Below, in pieces: positions 37,099 to 48,562 of a stretch of DNA of 64,000 nt (its first letter is position 1; the number at the start of each line of letters is the position of its first letter). A program made the position numbers and the translations under genes. Source of the DNA: Spirochaetia bacterium (GTDB taxonomy: Bacteria > Spirochaetota > Spirochaetia > UBA9216). The stretch covers positions 2,208,001 to 2,272,000 of the forward strand of contig OY776510.1 of assembly GCA_963675665.1 (NCBI GenBank). The letters run 5' to 3'. The notes beneath the pieces are model-generated. The model made no database searches and was not told the origin of the DNA. It saw only the letters and a list, made by a program, of their open reading frames with translations.

Positions 37099-38424
37099 AT
37101 GCATGATCAAAAACTTTTTAATAGATTTTTAACTCTCTGTGATAACGGTTTTGCAGCTGTTGATTCCGACGGCTGTATTCTGGAGGTCAATAAAGCCCTT
37201 TGCGAGCTGACCGGCCGTACAGAGTCATCGCTTACAGGGGCCGGTCTGGAGATCCTGTTCGACAGTTTCAGTGTAGAAACAATACTCCGAATTTATAATG
37301 CATTTGATTGTCACGAAATATCACATACAATATCGGGAGATCTTCTTCAGAAAAAAGGCAGCCCCAGGCTGGTAGAAATCTTTGTTAACTGTACAGCCGA
37401 CGAGCGTTGGCTGCTGATAAAAAACAGATCATTCAGAAAAGAAATGGAAAACAAGCTGCGCCGAAGCGAGTTAATGCTTAGCACCACTCTTGAGAGTCTT
37501 CCGTTTGATTTCTGGATAAATGATGATCAGAACCGCACCTGGATGCAGAATTCTTACAGCAAGGCTTTGTGGGGCGATGTAAAAGGCAAATCTCCCGAAG
37601 AAGTAGGCGCCGAAGAAAAGATAACGGGACAATGGCAGGATACTACCGAAAGGGCATTAAGGGGTGAGGTTGTCGAGGGTGAGATTGAATATATAATCGA
37701 CGGGCATAAAAAGACTTTCAGGAATATTCTGGCGCCGATAAAGGATGATGAAAAAATCCTGGGAATTCTCGGAATGAATATTGATATTACCGACCTTAAA
37801 GAAGCCCTGAATATTCGTGATATGCTGGTTAAAGAAGTACATCACAGAGTCAAGAATAACCTGCACATGATAAACAGTATAATCCAGCTTGAATCAGCCA
37901 GAATACCGGACGGCGAAAGCAGTGCAGTACTTGATGATCTGGTCAGCAGAATTGAGGCTGTTTCGCTTGTTCATGAGAAACTCTACACAACGGGTAATAA
38001 TAATCTGGTACATACTGCAGATTATATAAGAGACCTGGTAGATCATATAATTTCAGGGGTAAGAGCCGGTAATGTAATGGTTGACTATAATCTTGATGAT
38101 ATTGATCTTGAAACAGACCGGATTATTATTCTCGGACTTATTATTAATGAGCTTGTAACCAATGCCGTAAAATATGCGTTTACGGGTGAAGGGAGGCACG
38201 TTCTCAAGCTTTCCATGAAGAAAAAAAATAATGAAATTATAATAGTGGTTACCGATGACGGTCCGGGTTTAAAAACCGGAACCGAAAAAGAGCCGAGGGG
38301 ATCCCTCGGGTTTAAACTGATGGATGTATTGTCAGAACAGCTCGGCGGAAAGCTGGAAAGGCAAAGCAGTCCGGCTGGATGCAGCAACAGTTTGGTTTTC
38401 CCTGTAAAAAAGGCGGAAGCCTGA
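37099..38424 (+). CDS. Cytoplasmic PAS HisKA_2 histidine kinase
   Basis: PAS domains, EVHHRVKNNL, NELVTNAVKYAF and DDGPG. Confidence 0.9.
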   Translation: MHDQKLFNRFLTLCDNGFAAVDSDGCILEVNKALCELTGRTESSLTGAGLEILFDSFSVETILRIYNAFDCHEISHTISGDLLQKKGSPRLVEIFVNCTADERWLLIKNRSFRKEMENKLRRSELMLSTTLESLPFDFWINDDQNRTWMQNSYSKALWGDVKGKSPEEVGAEEKITGQWQDTTERALRGEVVEGEIEYIIDGHKKTFRNILAPIKDDEKILGILGMNIDITDLKEALNIRDMLVKEVHHRVKNNLHMINSIIQLESARIPDGESSAVLDDLVSRIEAVSLVHEKLYTTGNNNLVHTADYIRDLVDHIISGVRAGNVMVDYNLDDIDLETDRIIILGLIINELVTNAVKYAFTGEGRHVLKLSMKKKNNEIIIVVTDDGPGLKTGTEKEPRGSLGFKLMDVLSEQLGGKLERQSSPAGCSNSLVFPVKKAEA

Positions 38425-38472: not shown

Positions 38473-40188
38473 TTATGAATTGATGATGTCCTGATAGTTT
38501 TTCAGCAGTGTCGATTCTCCGCTTATAATAAAATTCATATTCATTTCTATTCTTGTAAGCATTTTTGCAATGAATGTTTCAGCGATTTTCAACTTTCGCT
38601 CTGAATGTTTTGCGTCTCTCATAAAGAACAGTCCGATTACTATATCAGTTGCCATTTCGACAAGACGTCTGGAATGGTAAGTTATGATATCCTGGTCTGT
38701 AATCTCCTTGATCTTAATGAGGGTTTTTTCAAAATTGAGCTGGGCCTTTTCTACCTTTGAAAAAAGATCTTTGCAGTGACTGAAATCATTATTTTCTATG
38801 AAATCCTCAATAAAGCGTGATGCTGTTCCCGAGGTAATGCCTCCTATTGCGGCCACAACCTGAAGCTGGGAGGTTCCTTCATATATATTGGTTATTCTTG
38901 CATCGCGGTAGTGGCGTTCGGCATTGAATTCTTTCATATAACCTGTGCCGCCGTGAATCTGGATTCCGTCGTATGTAACCTTATTGGCAGCTTCCGTGTT
39001 GTGAAGTTTGGTCATCGGTGTAAACAGGTTTGCAAGCCTTGTATAAGTCTTCAGATCCGATTTAAGTTCGGATGCCCTTTCCGGATGGGTTTCGGAAATA
39101 TGTTCCAGGCATTCTTTCAGATCGACAAACCTTGATGTTTCGTAAAGCAGCGTTCTGCTTGCTTCAACGGCAATTTTCATCTCGGTAAGCATTTCATAAA
39201 CAGGCGGAAACTCGATAATAGGCTTGCCGAACTGGATTCTTTCCCGGGCATATTTATATGCCTCACGGTATGCTGCTTCCGCAATGCCGGTCGCCTGACC
39301 CGAAACCATAAGGCGCGCGCTGTTCATCAGCCACATTGTGTACTTTGTAAGGCCACGCCGTCTCTGACCGACAAGTTCAGCCGGAGCATTGTTAAACTGC
39401 AGCTCGCAGGTTGGCGAACCGTGGATGCCGAGTTTGTTTTCAACGCGCCTGATGGTCATGTGCTCGTCCCTTTCATAAAGGAAAAAGGAAAGCCCGCCGG
39501 CGCCCTTTGACCCTTCTTCGGAACGGGCAAGAACCAGCCCGATTTTTCCGTTTCCGTTGGTAATAAAGCGTTTTACACCGTTAAGATACCATCTTCCGTC
39601 ATCGGCCTGATGTGCGCGAAGCGTAACCGCCTGTAAATCGGAACCTGCATCCGGCTCGGTCAAAATCATCGAAGAAGTTTCTTTACCGCTTGCAAGTATG
39701 GGAATTATTCTTTCCTTCTGTTTTTCGGAACCGAATTTATTGATTGTTTCGCTTATATCCTGCTGCAGTCCGAAGTTCAGAAATGAACCGTCCGCCCGGC
39801 TCATTATTTCGCCGGCAATGGACATAACCGTTACGGGACAGTTCAGGCCTCCGTATTTCCGGGGGTTTGCAAGTCCCATCAAGTCAGCCTTTGCAAGCAT
39901 ATCAAGGGCCATCTGCGTGCCTTCAGCGTAAACGACTTCTCCGTTTACAAGTTTTACACCTTCTTCGTCTACTTCTGCTGCAACGGGAGCCATATATTCT
40001 CCGGCAATCTCTCCGATAAGCGAAAGAATTTTTTCATATGAATCCATACAGTCCGCTACGTCTTTCGGAGCGTGAGGGAAAATGTCTTTTTCCGCGAAAT
40101 TGTCCTCTTTCAGCTTGATGATCTGTTCAAGATCAATATGTTTGAGGTGAAACAGTATATCTTCATTATCTTTCAAAAAGTTTTCCAT
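38473..40188 (-). CDS. Acyl-CoA dehydrogenase, long form with a C-terminal extension
   Basis: LTEPDAGSD, LNGVKRFITNG, KLGIHGSPT, QIHGGTGY and IYEGT. Confidence 0.92.
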   Translation of the reverse strand: MENFLKDNEDILFHLKHIDLEQIIKLKEDNFAEKDIFPHAPKDVADCMDSYEKILSLIGEIAGEYMAPVAAEVDEEGVKLVNGEVVYAEGTQMALDMLAKADLMGLANPRKYGGLNCPVTVMSIAGEIMSRADGSFLNFGLQQDISETINKFGSEKQKERIIPILASGKETSSMILTEPDAGSDLQAVTLRAHQADDGRWYLNGVKRFITNGNGKIGLVLARSEEGSKGAGGLSFFLYERDEHMTIRRVENKLGIHGSPTCELQFNNAPAELVGQRRRGLTKYTMWLMNSARLMVSGQATGIAEAAYREAYKYARERIQFGKPIIEFPPVYEMLTEMKIAVEASRTLLYETSRFVDLKECLEHISETHPERASELKSDLKTYTRLANLFTPMTKLHNTEAANKVTYDGIQIHGGTGYMKEFNAERHYRDARITNIYEGTSQLQVVAAIGGITSGTASRFIEDFIENNDFSHCKDLFSKVEKAQLNFEKTLIKIKEITDQDIITYHSRRLVEMATDIVIGLFFMRDAKHSERKLKIAETFIAKMLTRIEMNMNFIISGESTLLKNYQDIINS

Positions 40189-40210
40189 AAGTTATCCCCT
40201 TGTACCTAAG

Positions 40211-41224
40211 CTATGCTTTAGCCTTGTATGCCTTGATGAACTGCGGAATAACCTCTTTAAGATCGCCTACGATTCCGTAGTGGGCAATCTGGAAGATGGG
40301 CGCTTCCGGATCAGTATTGATGGCAATTATCTTTGATGATTCCGACATACCTGCTCTGTGCTGAATAGAACCTGAAATACCGCATGCGATATAAAGTCTC
40401 GGTCTGACGGTTGTTCCGGTCTGGCCTACCTGGTGTTCTTTGCTTACCAGCCCTGCATCGACTGCCGCGCGTGAAGCGCCGACCTCACCGCCGAGAACGT
40501 GCGCAAGATTCTCAATAAGCTTGAAGTTCTCCCTTGTTTCAACGCCTATCCCGCCTGATACGATAATCTGGGCGCCTTTAAGATTTACCGATTTTTCTTC
40601 ACGAACGCGCTTGATTATCTCGGTCAGGAAATCTCCGGCATCAAGTTTAATTTCCAGCTTTGTGATTTTACCCTTGAAACCGGTATCCGGCTCAGTCATC
40701 TTCATAACGCCTTCGCGGACTGTTGCCATCTGCGGAGTTTTCTCGGGTGAAACGATTGTAGCGATTATATTTCCGCCGAAAGCCGGACGAATCTGGTAAA
40801 GAATATTCGTGTACTCTTTGTCACGGATTTTATGATCGCCAATCTGGAGATCGGTACAGTCTGCTGTAAGCCCGACCTTCAGGTTGGATGCTATACGGGG
40901 GCCGAGATCCCGGCCGGTGGTGGTTGCTCCGTACAATACTATCTGAGGTTTTTCGGTTTCGATAACCTGTTTTACCACTTTTGTGTAAGGAACGGGGGTA
41001 TAATGTGCAAGCCGCTTGTCTTCTACAAGAAAAAGCTCGTCGACTCCGTATGTTATTACTCTTTTTGCTTCCGCTTCCAGCTTGTCGCCGGCAAGTACGG
41101 CTGAAACCTTTACGCCGAGCTGATCGGCCAGGTCGCGGGCCTTGCATACAAGTTCAAGGCTTACATCGGCTACAATGCCGTCGTCCTGCTGGATAAAGAC
41201 CATTACTGTATTTTTATTGCTCAA
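40211..41224 (-). CDS. etfA: Electron transfer flavoprotein alpha subunit
   Basis: GLTADCT, RPAFGGN, QVGQTG, GISGSIQH.AGM and AINTD; TTG start. Confidence 0.93.
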   Translation of the reverse strand: MSNKNTVMVFIQQDDGIVADVSLELVCKARDLADQLGVKVSAVLAGDKLEAEAKRVITYGVDELFLVEDKRLAHYTPVPYTKVVKQVIETEKPQIVLYGATTTGRDLGPRIASNLKVGLTADCTDLQIGDHKIRDKEYTNILYQIRPAFGGNIIATIVSPEKTPQMATVREGVMKMTEPDTGFKGKITKLEIKLDAGDFLTEIIKRVREEKSVNLKGAQIIVSGGIGVETRENFKLIENLAHVLGGEVGASRAAVDAGLVSKEHQVGQTGTTVRPRLYIACGISGSIQHRAGMSESSKIIAINTDPEAPIFQIAHYGIVGDLKEVIPQFIKAYKAKA

Positions 41225-41234
41225 TTGTCTCTCC

Positions 41235-42110
41235 TTATCCTATTGTGTGATCGGCGATTAAATCATGGACCATACCGGCAATACCGCCGGTTGTGTTATC
41301 AACCATCACTATCTCGCCTGCAGTAAGAACAACCGACTCGATTTTTTTAACCTTTGTCGGCGAGCCTGACAGGCCGCAGCTTTCAACATCCGCGTTGATT
41401 GCTTCAATATCCCATTGTGCAAGGTTTGTATTTGCGCCTGCATCGCCGTCCATATAGCTTTCATCAAATGCTTCTGTAGAAACTTCGGTTGAAGCGTTCT
41501 TATATGCCAGCATTCGTATCGCGGAAGGAGGCCTTGGTACGAACCCTTCGTCAGTGAAGGTCATCAGAACCGGAAACCCTGCTTTTACAATCTCATAACC
41601 GCCTTCGATTGAACGGGTTGCTTCAATTGATTTTTTATTTTCATCAATCTTATTAATCCCGGAAACGCAGGTGATCTGGTTGATTCCGAGTTTTTCTGCA
41701 GTCTGGGGACCGACCTGGGCCGTGTCACCGTCTATCGCCTGCCGTCCGCAGAAAACCATATCGACATTGCCGATTTTTTCAATAGCACATTTTAATGCGT
41801 ATGATGTTGCAAGGGTATCGGCCGCTGCAAACCTTCTGTCCGAAATAAGGGCAACAAAGTCCGCTCCCCTGTATAGAGATTCCTTTAATACCTGAACTGC
41901 CGGCGGCGGTCCCATTGTCAATACATTTACCCTTGCATCCGGGTACATGTCCTTAACTGTAAGGGCTGCTTCAAGCGCATGCAGATCCTCAGGGTTGAAA
42001 ATAGCTGGAAGAGCCTGTCTGTTTACAGTTCCATCCTCTTTCATTGCTTCGCCGGTAATATTTGCTGTATCCGGCACCTGTTTCACAAGAACGACGAGAT
42101 TTAAACCCAT
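41235..42110 (-). CDS. etfB: Electron transfer flavoprotein beta subunit
   Basis: VKQVPD, NPEDLHALE, MGPP, ADTLATS and GRQAIDGDTAQVGP. Confidence 0.93.
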   Translation of the reverse strand: MGLNLVVLVKQVPDTANITGEAMKEDGTVNRQALPAIFNPEDLHALEAALTVKDMYPDARVNVLTMGPPPAVQVLKESLYRGADFVALISDRRFAAADTLATSYALKCAIEKIGNVDMVFCGRQAIDGDTAQVGPQTAEKLGINQITCVSGINKIDENKKSIEATRSIEGGYEIVKAGFPVLMTFTDEGFVPRPPSAIRMLAYKNASTEVSTEAFDESYMDGDAGANTNLAQWDIEAINADVESCGLSGSPTKVKKIESVVLTAGEIVMVDNTTGGIAGMVHDLIADHTIG

Positions 42111-42190
42111 CCTTTCCTCCTGTTATCAAAACTTGGTAACCAACCCCGTAATATCAAGTTGGTTAGGTGTTTATCAAAATATTATTTATA

Positions 42191-42219
42191 ATAATATGAA
42201 TAAAACGCCGGAAATTCAA
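42191..42219 (-). promoter_or_regulatory. Sigma70-like promoter for etfB-etfA-acd
   Basis: Minus-strand TTGAAT, 17 nt, TATTAT. Downstream palindromes TTGGTAACCAA (42133-42143) and TAACCAAC...GTTGGTTA may be operators. Confidence 0.45.
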
Positions 42220-42398
42220 GACTAATTTCGGTCGTTGGCCGATAAAATTTGCCTGTAATATGCATATTAAGTCTTTTATATTAAAATAAAAATATCCTTT
42301 ATTTTTTGTATTTGAGATACTATAATTTTCTCTTAAGAAATAAAAAAATAATTTTAAAGTGGTTCATAAAAAAGAAAACACTATTTCGGGGAGTTGTG

Positions 42399-43493
42399 AT
42401 GGACAAAGAGACCGCTTTAAAAATTAAGAAAGATCTATCCAGAAGAAAAAACAGACAGCTTAATCAATATGTCGCGGATATCACGGGAATGCTTGGGAAT
42501 TTAAAATCCGTTTCGGAAGATGTTTCCACTGAACTGGACATGAACAACAATATTCTGGAGCGCAACTTTGACGGGCTGATTAAAACACTCGTTAATTTTG
42601 ACGAATCGATAATATCAATAAGACAGAGCATTCTTAAAGAGAATGACGCAGTGGATAATGTAGCGGCATCTTCAGAGGAGATGGCCAGAACAGCTGATTC
42701 AATTTCTGAGAATATTACTTCGCAATCGGCTTCTCTTATTGAGTTTTCTTCGGTCCTGGAAGAGATGACCGCATCAATTAATAATGTTGCTACATCCACT
42801 TCAGAAGCTACAAATCTTGTAACTGAAGTATCAAAGACCGCAAAAGAAGGCAACCGGTTTGTTGAAGAAAACCTGAAAGCAATAGAAGACATCAAGACTT
42901 CTTCCGAGCAGATAACCAGTATAACTTCGGTAATTCAGCAGATATCAAGCCAGTCGAATCTTCTTGCAATGAACGCATCCATAGAAGCCGCCCATGCCGG
43001 GGAGCATGGACGGGGTTTTGCCGTCGTGGCGGAAGAAATGCGTAAAATGGCGGAAAGCAGCAGCACTGAAGCGGATAAAATCTCCAGGATAGTAAAAGAA
43101 GTAATGGATAAAATCGATCAGGCTGTCAGCGTAACCAGGCGTGTTACGGAAAATAACAATACCATTTCCAACGGAATCGGAAGAATCCTGGACATAACAA
43201 GCCAGATTATGGATGCAATGCAGGAACAGTCTGCAGGTACTGAACAGGTATTGAAGGAAGTTAAGTCGTTAACCGACGGAACAGCAGAAATAAAATCCGC
43301 AACCGGGGAACAAACAGGGGCGAACAGAACACTTTTAAATTCAATTACGGAATTGAGACAGGCAGCTGAAGATGTAAACAGAATTCTTGCTATTGAAGAA
43401 ATAACCCGTAACGAGATTGTTGATATCATTAATAAATCAGGAAGATCGTTTATCCGCAATACTGATATAAGCAGAAAACTGAACGGAGGTTGA
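42399..43493 (+). CDS. Soluble methyl-accepting chemotaxis protein with no sensor or TM domain
   Basis: [34 protein letters not shown] hairpin signature; no hydrophobic segment. The GGGGAG SD favours ATG 42399. Confidence 0.88.
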
Positions 43494-43499
43494 TAGAAA

Positions 43500-44030
43500 A
43501 TGGATATAGATTTTGTTCAGCGTTTTGATACAAGAAGGAATTTCCAGTACGTTAATGATGAACCGTCGGTTATGCATTGTCATCATTATGCAACATTATT
43601 CACAAAACTTGCCATGGATAACAAGGCCCTGAACGGACCGCAGCTTCTGTCTGATTCAATGGAAGACAGTATTTTTCTTGTTTTGAAAAAATATTATCTG
43701 AGGCATGAAATTTCATCAGTAAATATGAAAATTGAGGTTGCAGAAGAATATTTTTCCAAAATAGGAATGGGAAAAGTTTCAATCAGGTTCTCAGAGAGCG
43801 GAGGGAGTGCAAGAATGACCAGGTCCCATATTGACGAAGGCTGGCTGAAAAAATGGGGAAAGAATTCCGAACCTGTGAACTACATTAGCTGCGGCTATCT
43901 CAACGCTGTTTTTTCGCTGGCTTCAGCTTTACCTCTCAGATCTTTTCGGGCGGTTGAGAAAGAATCGATTGTTACGGGAAGCTCCCATTCAAATTTTTCA
44001 ATAACTCCCGCAGGAGGTAAGCTATCATGA
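43500..44030 (+). CDS. V4R-fold (4-vinyl reductase-like) protein with an HCHHY motif
   Basis: HCHHY, F..IGMG, PVNYISCGYLNAVF and a VEKESIVTG.S.S.F V4R-like tail. Confidence 0.65.
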   Translation: MDIDFVQRFDTRRNFQYVNDEPSVMHCHHYATLFTKLAMDNKALNGPQLLSDSMEDSIFLVLKKYYLRHEISSVNMKIEVAEEYFSKIGMGKVSIRFSESGGSARMTRSHIDEGWLKKWGKNSEPVNYISCGYLNAVFSLASALPLRSFRAVEKESIVTGSSHSNFSITPAGGKLS

Positions 44031-44620
44031 TAGACAGAGATACTGCAATTGATGCCTTGTCGAAAATTAAAGTCAAAGGCAACAGCGACGGTCTGATACC
44101 GTCCTTTAATGTTCTGGTTAATTTTCTTCCCAGTTATTTCTGGAATACCTTTTCCGAGAAAATTCTTAAACAAACCGGAGACGATCCCGGGTTATATGCA
44201 AAAATAGAAGAGGGTCTTGAACTTGCCGCTGCGGAATGCGGATATCATACTGGGTACGGAATAATTACAAGCGAGGAATTCCGGTCGATAATCGGGCCAA
44301 TGATAGAAAAAGAACCTGATGATGTTCTTCACGGCGCATACGCTGTTTTTACAGCATGGGGCTGGGCCGATGCCGAGATTACCGAGTTGTCTCCGGCGCG
44401 AATGACTATAAAGGTAAATGACTATTATGAATCCGATATTATCGATACATTTAAGGTCACGAAGCCGTTTGCATATATGATTAAAGGCGTTTCCAGGGCT
44501 TTTATGGATCTGGGATATGGGAAACCGTATCCGGACGGGCTCGGGATGCATGTCTGCAGGCAGACAAAAGCAATAGAACTCGGCGACAGTTACGGAGAGT
44601 TTGTTGTTACAAAAGCATGA
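44027..44620 (+). CDS. Second V4R-like protein
   Basis: ECGYHTGYGI, AWGWA, PFAYMIKGVSRAFMDL and CRQTKAIELGDSYGEF. Confidence 0.55.
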   Translation: MIDRDTAIDALSKIKVKGNSDGLIPSFNVLVNFLPSYFWNTFSEKILKQTGDDPGLYAKIEEGLELAAAECGYHTGYGIITSEEFRSIIGPMIEKEPDDVLHGAYAVFTAWGWADAEITELSPARMTIKVNDYYESDIIDTFKVTKPFAYMIKGVSRAFMDLGYGKPYPDGLGMHVCRQTKAIELGDSYGEFVVTKA

Positions 44621-45762
44621 TATATTTCAATAACGCTGCTACGTCTTTTCCCAAACCTGGTGAAGTCATCGAACGTGTTAACAGGGTTCTCAGGGAAACT
44701 CCGGCAGAGCAGTCAAGGGGCGCCGGTGCTGCCGGGAGTGCATCTCCTGATTCCTGCAGAAAAACGGCTGCATCCTTTTTTAATCTGAAAGACAGCAGGC
44801 AAATTATTTTTACATCGGGGGCGACCGAGTCGCTGAATACGCTGATTTTCGGGATGACTGAACCCGGCTGCAGGGTTGTTACAACTGTTACTGAGCATAA
44901 TTCAGTATTAAGACCTCTTTTTCAGCTTGAAGATCGGGGGGATATTGATCTCTGCCTGGTCGGATGTGACAGGCAGGGTTATATAGATCTTGATTCATTG
45001 GCAAACGAGCTTAAAATTGCAACCGATCTGGTTGTTATCAATCATGCTTCGAATGTTACCGGGGCAATTCAGGATATTGAAAAAATAATTGATATCTGCA
45101 ACCGATCAAAGACACCGATAATACTTGATGCTTCTCAGTCGGCCGGGCATATACCGGTATCGGATTTCGGCTACAATAAAATTGCTGTTGCGTTCACCGG
45201 CCATAAAGGTTTATTCGGTATTCAGGGCAGCGGAGGATTCTATATTTCACCCGGAATAAAATGCCGTCCGTTCAAGCTCGGAGGCACCGGAAGCCGAAGC
45301 GAATCAAGGCAGCAGCCTTCCGAATTCCCGGTATATTTTGAGGCCGGAACCAGAGGCCTGCCGGGTATCTGTTCGATGGATGCCGGAATGAAATGGATTA
45401 CAGATCAGAATCTTTCCAAAATAGAATCAAGCGAAGCCCGGCTAAGGAATCTGCTGATTGATGGGATTTCCGGACATAAAAAGGTAAAATTATTTGCTGC
45501 GGATCGGATGTCAAAATCCACCGGATTACTTTCATTCGCTATTGACGGTTTTTCACCGGATGACATCTCCTATGTTCTCGAGAGATCTTTCGGAATAATT
45601 ACACGTCCCGGTCTCCACTGCGCGCCGCTTATGCATAAAGCGATAGGGACTTACCCTGAAGGAACAGTAAGAATAAGTTTCTCTGTTTTTAACAGTAAAG
45701 ACGAAGTTCTGCAGCTTATTAATGCAGTTGAATCAATAGCCGAAACTGTGGCGGCAGTATGA
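44617..45762 (+). CDS. Cysteine desulfurase-family class V PLP enzyme
   Basis: YFNNAATSFPKP, TEHNSV, HASNVTG, DASQSAG, FTGHKG (PLP Lys) and RPGLHCAP (catalytic Cys). Confidence 0.9.
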   Translation: MIYFNNAATSFPKPGEVIERVNRVLRETPAEQSRGAGAAGSASPDSCRKTAASFFNLKDSRQIIFTSGATESLNTLIFGMTEPGCRVVTTVTEHNSVLRPLFQLEDRGDIDLCLVGCDRQGYIDLDSLANELKIATDLVVINHASNVTGAIQDIEKIIDICNRSKTPIILDASQSAGHIPVSDFGYNKIAVAFTGHKGLFGIQGSGGFYISPGIKCRPFKLGGTGSRSESRQQPSEFPVYFEAGTRGLPGICSMDAGMKWITDQNLSKIESSEARLRNLLIDGISGHKKVKLFAADRMSKSTGLLSFAIDGFSPDDISYVLERSFGIITRPGLHCAPLMHKAIGTYPEGTVRISFSVFNSKDEVLQLINAVESIAETVAAV

Positions 45763-46043
45763 AGATAAACGGATCAAGGATGCTTGAAGACTGCCTGGAC
45801 GGTTCGTTTATCTTTGAGCTTAGCTATTCTGAACCTGTGACAGAAGAGGCGATCCTTATCCTGAACACTCTGGGTGAGCTTGAATATTTTTCAAGCTTCC
45901 CCAAACCTTTTTACCGTCTTGTACAGAATGATAACTTCCAGTTAAAGGGTGTTGAAGGCGAAACAACATCCCGGCTTTTTCTTTTTAAGGGATCGCTTAA
46001 GCACCTGATTGATGAACTGAATACGGTTTTTAAATTATTATAA
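45759..46043 (+). CDS. Small hypothetical protein (EDCLDGS motif)
   Basis: 94 aa; ATGA overlap with the desulfurase stop; a single Cys. Confidence 0.65.
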   Translation: MKINGSRMLEDCLDGSFIFELSYSEPVTEEAILILNTLGELEYFSSFPKPFYRLVQNDNFQLKGVEGETTSRLFLFKGSLKHLIDELNTVFKLL

Positions 46044-46145
46044 CCATATCGGGCAGTTTTTAGGGAATGCCTGTTTTTAACGCTCCGGCCGCGACAGATA
46101 AAATAATAAGCTTGTTGAGGTACAATTGCTGAATTATAATGAGGC

Positions 46146-47915
46146 ATGTTTTCTTCAATCCAGAGCAGAAATACTTTATCCATTATTGCAGCTGTTGTCC
46201 TGTTTCTGGCTGTTCTTCTGCTGGTTAACTACCTGCTGTTAAGGGATTTCTCACTTGAACACGCGGAGCGGACCTCGACGCTGATACTCGACAGCGCCGA
46301 TTCCCAGCTTGATATAATTTTCAATGAGATAGAAGCGCTGGTATTATCGATGACGACTGTAAGGGCGGTCTATGAGGTTTATATTGATGATATGTCGGAG
46401 CTGTTTATCAACAATGTGCTGGTCAGGCAGCAGAATGTGCGGGCTATCTATCTCGGAACCGAGGACGGCCGGATGTTCGAATGGGGCGTCGGGGAAGGTT
46501 TTACTGATTATACTCCGAAGTTCCCTGAAGGATATGATCCCCGGGTAAGACCCTGGTACCGTCAGGCTGTTGAATCCGACAGTTACGGGTTGACGAGTCC
46601 GTACATATTCGCGAGCATTGAAGCCATAGGCATAACCGCCGTAGCCCCGGTCTATAATAAGGAAGTGCTTGTCGGCGTGCTTGGGCTGGATCTGATCATG
46701 CATGGCCTGGATAATGTCGTCGATTCGCTTGATGTTCCGATGGACGGAAAGGTGATGCTGTTGAACAGCGATATGGCCATTCTTGTAAACCAGTTTTTCC
46801 CTACAACCGAAGCTGTTACCGAGCTGGAGACTTTCCGGCACCCTGAGCTGATACAAACTGATGAAAGCTTTATCATTGCGGATGTTTACGGCGCACAATA
46901 TATGATCAGCACCGTTGAAAACCTTGAAACCGGCTGGATTATGCTGCTGTTTCTGCCGTACAAAAGGATTATGAATTTTTCACAGCAGATAATCATGATA
47001 ATTATATTATTTGATATTCTGCTCACCTTTCTCCTGGGATCACTTATAGCCTTTATCACGCGCAACCTTGTTACGAATCCGCTCGACAGAATTATATCGA
47101 TTTTCAGACGCTTCGAAAGCGGAGATATATCAGCCCGGATTCCGGACCTTCCCGGGCGAGAGTTTGGTCTTATTTCGAGGCTGTTTAACAGGCTTTCAGA
47201 TCAGTCCGCTGAATTTACCCGGACAATGGAAGGTAAGGTCGAGCAGAGGACTCAGGCGGTAATACGCCTTCAGAAGGAGAATGTAAGGCTTAGAATTATA
47301 GAAGAGAAAGAGCGGATATACGGAAACCTGCATGATTCTCTCGGCGCAAGGCTTACGAGCATCAATATCAGTAATCATGTTGCCAGGAGTGCGCTTGAAC
47401 GCAATGAAAAAATCGTGCTTTCAGAGATGCTTGATCGTATTGAAAAGAATACCGGGCAGGGAATTCAGGACTTAAAGGAAATTCTGAAAGCAGGGGAGGG
47501 CGATGCGGCAGGCCCTGTTGAGCTTCTGGATTATATCGGGAGGACGGTGCGTGAAAGGCTGGCGCTTAAAGATATAAAGCTCGAAACCAGGCTGCCTTCG
47601 GTTGAAGATGCTGCAATATTTGAGCCGGATTTTATCGTTAACTGCGAAAAGATTATTCAGGAGCTGGTTTCCAACACAATGAAGCATTCCGGCGCCGCCC
47701 TTGTGCGGATCGAACTTGATCTGGAGTCGAATAAAATCAAACTTAACTATATGGATAACGGAAACGGATTTGTTTTAAAAGATGCTCTCAGGAACGGGTT
47801 CGGACTTCAGGGGCTTTACAGCAGGGCTGAAAGAATGGACGGCATATTAAAGATTTCTTCACGGCCGGGCAGGGTTTCGACTTTTAATTTTCAATTCAGG
47901 GCCGGTGAAGAATGA
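46146..47915 (+). CDS. dCache-HAMP sensor histidine kinase (HisKA_3)
   Basis: TM, YDPRVRPWY...PY...GLD dCache motif, TM, HAMP, ERIYGNLHDSLG, QELVSNTMKHS and DNGNGF. Confidence 0.9.
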   Translation: MFSSIQSRNTLSIIAAVVLFLAVLLLVNYLLLRDFSLEHAERTSTLILDSADSQLDIIFNEIEALVLSMTTVRAVYEVYIDDMSELFINNVLVRQQNVRAIYLGTEDGRMFEWGVGEGFTDYTPKFPEGYDPRVRPWYRQAVESDSYGLTSPYIFASIEAIGITAVAPVYNKEVLVGVLGLDLIMHGLDNVVDSLDVPMDGKVMLLNSDMAILVNQFFPTTEAVTELETFRHPELIQTDESFIIADVYGAQYMISTVENLETGWIMLLFLPYKRIMNFSQQIIMIIILFDILLTFLLGSLIAFITRNLVTNPLDRIISIFRRFESGDISARIPDLPGREFGLISRLFNRLSDQSAEFTRTMEGKVEQRTQAVIRLQKENVRLRIIEEKERIYGNLHDSLGARLTSINISNHVARSALERNEKIVLSEMLDRIEKNTGQGIQDLKEILKAGEGDAAGPVELLDYIGRTVRERLALKDIKLETRLPSVEDAAIFEPDFIVNCEKIIQELVSNTMKHSGAALVRIELDLESNKIKLNYMDNGNGFVLKDALRNGFGLQGLYSRAERMDGILKISSRPGRVSTFNFQFRAGEE

Positions 47916-48562
47916 TAAATCTGGTTATAGTGGAAGATTCCAAGGATACACGTGAAGGCCTCAAGTATCTGCTGCGGCTCGAGGAAGGCATAAGGGTGCT
48001 TAAAGCCTGCGAGAGTGCTGAAGAGCTGCTGATCGATTCTGATGTGCTTGGCAGCGTGGATATTGTATTGATGGATATCGAACTGCCCGGGATGAACGGA
48101 ATCAAGGCCACCAGAAAGATAAAAGAATTAAGGCCGGAGGTTGATGTCCTGATTCTGACGATTTTTGAAGAGCAGGAAAAAATTATCAAGGCTATTCAGG
48201 CCGGAGCTTCCGGCTATATCCTCAAGAACGCTGCGCCCGGAGAACTAGTCGGACAGATTAAAAGCGTTGTAAAAGGCGGCTCTCCAATAAGTCCCGGGGT
48301 AGCGCGTACGCTTCTTGAAGAATTCAGACAGAAAGAGAAAAGAAATAAAAGCACCGAAGATTACGATCTGACTCCCCGTGAGATTGAGGTTTTCAAGGCG
48401 ATAGTTGAAGGTTATACATACAAGGAAATGGCGGACGAGCTCAATATAGCTTCTTCGACAGCCAAAAAGCACATCCTTCATATCTATCGAAAGCTTAACG
48501 TTACTTCAAAGGTTGAGTTTATCAAGAAGGTTATTGATGAAAATATTCTCGAAGACCTGTAA
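47912..48562 (+). CDS. NarL/LuxR-family response regulator
   Basis: VED, LMDIELPGMNG, GASGYILK and the LTPREIEV...HIYRKL HTH. Confidence 0.93.
   Translation: MINLVIVEDSKDTREGLKYLLRLEEGIRVLKACESAEELLIDSDVLGSVDIVLMDIELPGMNGIKATRKIKELRPEVDVLILTIFEEQEKIIKAIQAGASGYILKNAAPGELVGQIKSVVKGGSPISPGVARTLLEEFRQKEKRNKSTEDYDLTPREIEVFKAIVEGYTYKEMADELNIASSTAKKHILHIYRKLNVTSKVEFIKKVIDENILEDL

Follow-up and report, generated by a model that had tools for sequence, protein, structure and literature searches.

A candidate cytoplasmic sensor encoded with a sensor-less chemoreceptor and its own cysteine desulfurase in a spirochaete and across bacterial phyla

What does a chemoreceptor report when it carries no sensing domain of its own? 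To our knowledge the input of most cytoplasmic sensor-less chemoreceptors is unknown, and a locus of a Spirochaetia bacterium (lineage UBA9216, GenBank assembly GCA_963675665.1) raises the question in a concrete form. In the window analysed here, which is the whole stretch of 64,000 nucleotides from position 2,208,001 to 2,272,000 of contig OY776510.1, five open reading frames (ORFs) lie on the + strand between 42399 and 46043 and encode, in this order, a methyl-accepting chemotaxis protein (MCP), two proteins that we call A and B, a cysteine desulfurase and a small protein, S94 (Table 1). An earlier note on this DNA had proposed that A and B form a sensor, loaded by the desulfurase, that reports to chemotaxis through the MCP. 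We find that the gene set is probably an undescribed kind of cytoplasmic sensor. The reading we prefer, with a probability of roughly 0.55, is that the operon supplies a receptor lacking its own sensing domain with an accessory sensor in the cytoplasm and that this sensor works through a sulfur-dependent site.

On its sequence features, the MCP of the window is a soluble receptor without a recognisable sensor. PF00015 (MCPsignal; 8.4e-36, residues 140-292) is the sole Pfam family above its curated cut-off, no hydrophobic segment is present (maximum 19-residue Kyte-Doolittle mean 0.67), and the protein contains no cysteine, in agreement with the earlier description of a signalling domain without a sensor. 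Soluble homologues of this MCP are found directly upstream of A in related loci. The junctions of the five genes are as first described, with a 6-bp gap after the MCP gene followed by three ATGA start/stop overlaps, and judged by this gap and these overlaps the operon is tight. When 41900-46400 was scanned for promoters and terminators, the counts came close to the shuffled expectation and no terminator-like site appeared on the + strand downstream of S94.

The five genes belong to a cassette that is kept across phyla, which bears out the expectation that their neighbourhood would be conserved. We collected 99 loci (19 from genomes and 80 from metagenomes), 35 of which have full flanks, defined as 3.3 kb or more on the upstream side of B and 2.2 kb or more on the downstream side. 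Among these 35 loci A is present in 34, S94 in 29, a further short gene that we call sm in 26 and the desulfurase in 22; S94 is therefore tied more tightly to A-B than the desulfurase is. The commonest gene order is desulfurase-S94-sm-A-B (33/99 loci), and the order of the window, A-B-desulfurase-S94, is found in six loci. By their record titles the cassettes come from Spirochaetota, Zixibacteria, Ignavibacteria, Desulfobacterota-type groups, Clostridia, Acidobacteriota and Planctomycetota. B occurs in five genomes of a spirochaete-phylum sample of 301, the window's own included. The module is rare in the window's phylum, is spread over phyla and is found repeatedly within chemosensory gene sets.

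The sm gene was revealed as a recurrent member of the cassette by tblastn across the loci. Its product is about 60 amino acids (aa) long and helical, has no Cys or His, and follows the consensus MGxKLxKxY...MRLAMKTG..S..KA...PDSPENI.KFK. The gene sits immediately upstream of A in most cassettes (for example at L013:5257-5469 and L027:1949-2128). No match to sm was found in Pfam or among PDB sequences, and on these sequence comparisons it is a new protein family. It was not found in the window by tblastn or by a hidden Markov model run over the six-frame translation, and a search of the whole genome gave no match at E ≤ 1, an empty result that is weak without a positive control.

The putative sensor proteins A and B are recognisable by fold more than by sequence family. 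Neither protein of the window matches Pfam or NCBIfam at E ≤ 0.1, and no precomputed Pfam domain is recorded among the 120 homologues listed for A or the 120 listed for B. PF02830 appears below its threshold in 40 of 116 A-family members (best E 1.6e-4) and in one of 103 B members (E 0.068). The AF2 models (pLDDT 94.6 for A and 91.3 for B) gave Foldseek matches to the XylR_N+V4R sensor domains of the sigma-54 activators PoxR, MopR and DmpR, with the same fold over the full length of both proteins. For A these matches have TMq 0.70-0.76 and E down to 1e-8, the best being PoxR (5fru, E 9.9e-9, TMq 0.76); for B they have TMq 0.61-0.70, among them MopR (5kbi) at E 4.6e-6 and PoxR (5frv) at TMq 0.70. 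Lower in the same searches are TRAPP Bet3 subunits, the V4R protein MJ1460 (2osd, 2oso), YslB and, weakly, H-NOX. The label 'V4R-like' that both proteins had been given thus stands by the fold of the predicted models and fails by the Pfam V4R cut-off.

These fold matches raise a first alternative, that A-B senses small molecules as MopR and DmpR do, holding a diffusible organic ligand in its V4R pocket, and has no sulfur-built cofactor; the desulfurase and S94 would then make or convert this ligand, which might be a sulfur-containing metabolite, or would answer some unrelated need. The best matches are phenol-binding sensor domains, and the passages of PMC7264223 on which we draw describe aromatic effectors as ligands of the V4R scaffold. 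The same passages give the zinc ligands of DmpR as C151, E172, C177 and C185. Compared by motif spacing, not by residue-level structural alignment, A keeps a MopR-like arrangement, E153-x2-S156-x7-S164 (within EKESIVTGSSHS, residues 153-164), in which Ser is at least 90% conserved where the DmpR-type ligands are Cys, and B has lost the ligand skeleton, with Q179...G186...G190 in the corresponding region (within QTKAIELGDSYG, residues 179-190). The usual C-terminal cysteines of V4R domains are thus lost from both proteins, as proposed, and the zinc ligands are not kept, which counts against a sensor of the MopR/DmpR type.

The residues that have become invariant are His and Cys, typical ligands of metals or clusters, and they lie elsewhere in the chains; they too speak against a purely organic ligand. 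The HCHHY motif of A and the ECGYH motif of B are both present as previously described. Searches gave 156 homologues of A and 1348 of B, found in Spirochaetes, Zixibacteria, Ignavibacteria, Desulfobacterota-type lineages, Acidobacteriota, Planctomycetota and one gammaproteobacterium, and both motifs are conserved in the homologues that were aligned. Across 120 homologues of A, H26 and H29 are conserved in 100% and C27 and H28 in 99%; an alignment of 116 sequences shows no variation at H26, H29 or Y30 and at least 90% conservation at C27 and H28, and G114-W115 is also invariant or nearly so. Across 120 homologues of B the values are 100% for C71, 99% for H74, 92% for H102 and 87% for C177; in the B alignment C71, G72 and Y73 are invariant, and E70 and H74 are at least 90% conserved. 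In the AF2 model of B the ECGYH motif sits within a long helix (residues 54-80). Identity to B across phyla is 60-88% among the best 120 of its 1348 homologues, with a mean column identity of 69%, and by alignment B is the most conserved member of the cassette.

Conserved His and Cys suggest a second alternative, that the HCHH and CxxH motifs of A-B hold heme or one metal ion (Ni, Zn, Cu or Fe) and that the pair senses gas, redox state or metal in the way of H-NOX or of Cys/His-ligated heme sensors, the desulfurase being linked to it loosely. Some heme sensors use adjacent Cys and His for ligand switching, and H-NOX structures are among the weaker fold matches (6jt0 at TMq 0.39 for B and 4iae at TMq 0.42 for A). 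These H-NOX matches fall well short of the ones with MopR and PoxR, however, and the flanks of the cassettes show no recurring genes for heme biosynthesis or metal transport. Binding of heme or a lone metal ion would also leave unexplained the desulfurase of 22/35 full-flank loci and the one-Cys partner of 29/35, and we judge it quite unlikely.

Gene adjacency and natural fusions support A and B working as a pair, as had been suggested. The two families are related in their C-terminal halves (hhalign probability 80%, E 1.5e-5). Of the 85 loci with at least 560 nucleotides of upstream DNA, 84 have A immediately before B; the exception, L038 (6001-6582), is the sole such locus where B stands without a detectable A. 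Longer relatives of B form three clusters of 396-aa proteins, and the one cluster that we checked joins A (residues 1-177) to B (residues 199-393) in a natural fusion. Among these longer forms no fusion of B to an output domain, including sigma-54 AAA+, was found, an empty search that is weak evidence. The window genome has a single copy of B. DmpR-type sensor domains form dimers that interlock through their N-terminal region (PMC7264223, in the passages cited above), and the HCHHY motif of A lies in the region that intertwines with the partner in those domains. Heterodimers of paralogues are formed by the TRAPP Bet3 subunits (Bet3-Trs33 and Bet3-Trs31), the second group of matches (TMq about 0.5-0.57), which have a V4R-related fold; the relationship between V4R and Bet3 is stated in the part of PMC2253512 that we use. 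TRAPP differs in serving eukaryotic and archaeal vesicle tethering, with no signalling or sulfur link, and the likeness is one of fold, at 9-20% identity. Sequence profile searches of the PDB with A and B gave chance-level matches only, one of them a His-tag artefact. One weak co-linear match pairs residues 102-171 of A with LEPBI_II0033 of Leptospira biflexa (PDB 10lm chain c1, 175 aa; E 0.47); this protein is missing from the Foldseek matches listed for A and could be a chance match or a very distant relative.

The enzyme encoded after B is a class-V cysteine desulfurase. It scores 389.8 bits against TIGR01977 (cut-off 377) and 1.4e-67 against PF00266, and falls below the cut-off of the selenocysteine lyase model SclA (284.4 against 525). 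K197 stands in FTGHK and C335 in RPGLHCA, motifs that we take to mark the pyridoxal 5'-phosphate (PLP) Lys and the catalytic Cys, so that both catalytic residues named earlier are retained. The window genome encodes at least six full-length PF00266 class-V desulfurase-type paralogues, the cassette enzyme included; the cassette desulfurase is therefore an extra one. Genes with a sulfur or Fe-S connection were seen near some cassettes: DsrC and DsrE-like genes (L010:1338-2166), a 2-thiouracil desulfurase family protein directly after B (L017:6522-7547) and a 4Fe-4S ferredoxin-domain protein (L005:752-2248).

S94 has a single cysteine, in the motif EDCLDGS (residues 10-16), and this Cys is invariant in 14 of 14 sequences, together with Y43, F47, P50, K63, G64 and G67. 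A profile search found 469 representative clusters, of which the best 150 are all stand-alone proteins of 65-134 aa. No match was found for S94 in Pfam or NCBIfam at E ≤ 0.1, no relevant Pfam match at E ≤ 1 for any of the 14 sequences, no match of its profile to PDB sequences, and only unnamed clusters in the ESM Atlas. The desulfurase and S94 genes are often translationally coupled, and the closest known counterparts of the two proteins are the SufS-SufE, SufS-SufU and CsdA-CsdE pairs, in which, as here, a small protein with a single invariant Cys comes after a class-V PLP desulfurase. S94 has no detectable match to the acceptor families SufE/CsdE, SufU and TusA, and its predicted docking partner is B.

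This docking comes from a three-chain complex prediction of A, B and S94 in which S94, as the scored partner, reached 0.71 and the best of three controls stayed at 0.01. Of 157 solved complexes 116 attain the mark of S94, as do 2 of 215 mismatched pairs, a calibration that is rough here (three chains, custom alignments). Contacts agree by at least 79% between runs and the partner pLDDT is at least 86. The predicted interface joins residues 6-28 and 83-92 of B to residues 44-76 of S94 and holds residues invariant in both families (F47, P50, K63 and G64 of S94; E84, P91 and M92 of B). S94 belongs to the module, in which it is predicted to dock on B as a subunit. Both the predicted docking and the presence of the desulfurase and S94 beside A-B in most loci run against the small-molecule sensor introduced above. 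The loci without a desulfurase (13/35) are in its favour; on balance we regard it as unlikely.

The link to chemotaxis extends beyond the window genome. We clustered 323 ORFs from a survey of up to three ORFs on each side of the cassette, and found only two recurrent families, one of MCPs and one of receiver-linked proteins; all but one of their ORFs are on the cassette strand and most lie within about 300 bp. The MCP cluster comprises 28 ORFs from 24 loci, all on the cassette strand and 20 of them immediately upstream of the cassette; each of the 22 members scanned matches PF00015, most without any other domain. The receiver-linked cluster (22 ORFs, 17 loci) contains chemotaxis and two-component proteins, including CheA (L039), CheB (L039, L086), CheW (L049, L086), a CheW-receiver protein (L041), receiver-DUF4388 proteins (L013, L015, L019) and PAS hybrid kinases. 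Of the 86 loci with at least one flanking ORF, 35 have an MCP, CheA/W/B or receiver-cluster gene beside the cassette. All five B-bearing spirochaete-phylum genomes have a nearby MCP gene, directly upstream of A in four of them, the window's included; in G069 the MCP gene comes after B, at a distance of about 1.3 kb. Two cassettes of Desulfobacterota-type lineages have large ankyrin-repeat proteins encoded nearby (L006:1312-3612 and L011:7953-11036), one of which contains a caspase domain.

The MCPs themselves differ according to the cassette that they adjoin. The pattern [NYF]x[IM]xD[AIV]x[NS][KR]xG[RKN]xxxR ends the MCPs encoded directly upstream of A where sm is absent. It is found in 12/12 such MCPs (the window's and 11 further loci, counting one-residue variants in L017 and L106) and in 0/14 MCPs of sm-containing loci, counts that are descriptive and not a test, the pattern having been derived from the same sequences. 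The mutual exclusion of tail and sm suggests, at the level of sequence, two alternative routes of coupling sensor to receptor, and the tail may be a docking peptide that replaces sm. No similarity was found by hhalign between sm and the N-terminal 154 residues (probability 0.1%) or the C-terminal 74 residues (probability 0.5%) of the MCP.

The gene content allows a third alternative, that the cassette is a non-sensory module for sulfur trafficking or cofactor maturation in which A-B is a scaffold or carrier and the chemotaxis neighbours are incidental or regulatory. The desulfurase is the only enzyme of the cassette, other sulfur genes lie near some loci (L010, L017, L005), and 51 of the 86 loci have no MCP or receiver-cluster gene within three ORFs. 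The sole recurrent flanking clusters are nevertheless the MCPs and the receiver-linked proteins, nearly all on the same strand, the fold belongs to sensor domains, and the specific tail of MCPs that adjoin cassettes without sm points to co-evolution with the module. We consider a non-sensory role very unlikely.

For the preferred reading, an accessory sensor with a sulfur-dependent site, we infer the following biochemistry. The diverged V4R-fold paralogues A and B would interlock as a heterodimer in the manner of the DmpR sensor dimer, and S94 is predicted to join B as a third subunit. The desulfurase would mobilise cysteine sulfur and pass it, probably by way of Cys12 of S94, to the invariant His and Cys of A and B (HCHH of A; C71, H74, H102 and C177 of B), where its delivery would build or restore the site. 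Our preferred guess for this site is an Fe-S cluster with mixed His/Cys ligation between the subunits, and a persulfide is the alternative chemistry. The state of the site, for which redox, O2, NO or sulfide are candidate determinants, would alter the complex, and the complex would act on the soluble MCP and through it on CheA/CheW machinery encoded elsewhere in the genome, where three CheA-type loci are found. In the spirochaete version, which has no sm, the conserved C-terminal tail of the MCP may serve as the docking site.

Some of our observations weigh against this scheme. The chemotaxis link is frequent, not universal: to the 51/86 loci without an MCP or receiver-cluster gene can be added other types of signalling gene among the neighbours, such as a sigma-54 activator in L007. 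The desulfurase, absent from the 13 full-flank loci counted above, is not obligatory in cis, and some spirochaete loci consist of MCP-A-B only (L002, L017). Cys12 of S94 lies outside the listed predicted interface with B, the complex score is only roughly calibrated, and sequence alone does not reveal what the conserved His and Cys bind.

A bolder form of the scheme would make mobilised sulfur itself part of the signalling chemistry, a new kind of input that we regard as possible but doubtful. It could take either of two forms. An Fe-S cluster labile to O2 or NO could lie between A and B and be rebuilt by their own desulfurase and S94, which would amount to a built-in reset; or a persulfide relay could run from the desulfurase through Cys12 of S94 to B, its occupancy being read by the receptor. 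In both forms the couplers would be interchangeable, with sm or the C-terminal tail of the MCP plugging one sensor into different outputs.

The closest precedent for the mode of action is found in Treponema denticola, in which ODP, an oxygen-binding diiron protein, is genetically coupled to TDE2496, an MCP homologue without transmembrane or sensing modules, according to the portion of PMC7666581 used here. There, as in the window and 11 further sm-less loci, a separate cytoplasmic sensor gene accompanies a sensor-less soluble MCP, and the ODP pair too is from a spirochaete. The likeness is functional; the sensor families are unrelated (di-iron protein versus V4R-fold pair), and unlike our cassette ODP has, in the same portion, no dedicated desulfurase or small Cys protein. 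A and B differ from PoxR, MopR and DmpR in being a stand-alone pair of diverged paralogues, with no AAA+ fusion and, in the window, no Pfam V4R match; in having invariant His/Cys motifs at new places and not the zinc ligands; and in being coupled to a desulfurase and to chemoreceptors. We found no published description of the cassette in the literature searched, which leaves out most subscription journals. Passages on V4R that we did find there concern other systems. A chemoreceptor input accompanied by a cysteine desulfurase of its own is not known to us, and that literature gave no example. As a probable accessory cytoplasmic sensor for a soluble receptor, the system is built of unnamed families and its coupling to a dedicated desulfurase is unprecedented.

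Control of the MCP gene by sigma-28, weakly hinted at in the earlier note, is not supported. The octamer GCCGATAA is present upstream of the gene, and the window contains four copies against 3.08 expected by chance. Against TAAA-N15-GCCGATAA, which we take to be the sigma-28 consensus, the TAAT/CTAA upstream of the octamer lies about 4 nt too close. The octamer was not found upstream of the MCP in related spirochaete loci, and we rejected it as promoter evidence on its chance frequency and this lack of conservation.

Table 1. Positions of the cassette genes and motifs in the window
Feature	Position	Strand	Length	Basis or remark
MCP, soluble, sensor-less	42399-43493	+	364 aa	
MCP C-terminal tail motif, residues 338-354	43410-43460	+		pattern common to MCPs of sm-less loci
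Protein A, stand-alone XylR_N+V4R-fold	43500-44030	+	176 aa	AF2 model and Foldseek
HCHHY motif of A, residues 26-30	43575-43589	+		homologue alignment
Protein B, divergent V4R-fold paralogue of A	44027-44620	+	197 aa	AF2 model and Foldseek
ECGYH motif of B, residues 70-74	44234-44248	+		homologue alignment
Class-V PLP cysteine desulfurase	44617-45762	+	381 aa	TIGR01977, PF00266
S94, unnamed family, one invariant Cys (C12, nt 45792-45794)	45759-46043	+	94 aa	alignment
GCCGATAA octamer, proposed sigma-28 -10 element, unsupported	42238-42245	+		count, spacing, related loci

Further signalling genes lie on both sides of the unit. Downstream, after a gap of 102 bp, two mutually overlapping genes (46146-48562, + strand) encode a dCache-HAMP-HisKA_3-HATPase sensor kinase and a receiver-LuxR/GerE response regulator. 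We rejected them as members of the unit, since they are absent beside the cassette in related loci; the pair is probably a separate two-component system. Upstream, three ORFs of 571, 337 and 291 aa (38473-42110, - strand) diverge from the MCP promoter region and, judged by eye, resemble an acyl-CoA dehydrogenase and two electron-transfer flavoprotein subunits. A cytoplasmic PAS-PAS-HisKA_2-HATPase histidine kinase (37099-38424, + strand) is encoded upstream of this divergent block.

The cassette is a candidate input module for sensor-less receptors in many, mostly anaerobic, lineages, and three of its families, B, S94 and sm, have no Pfam match. The sm-containing variants and those with an MCP tail offer a natural comparison of how a sensor may be wired to its output. 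If the site between A and B is an Fe-S cluster or a persulfide, the module would let one study directly how redox state, oxygen, NO or sulfide guides the movement of anaerobes.

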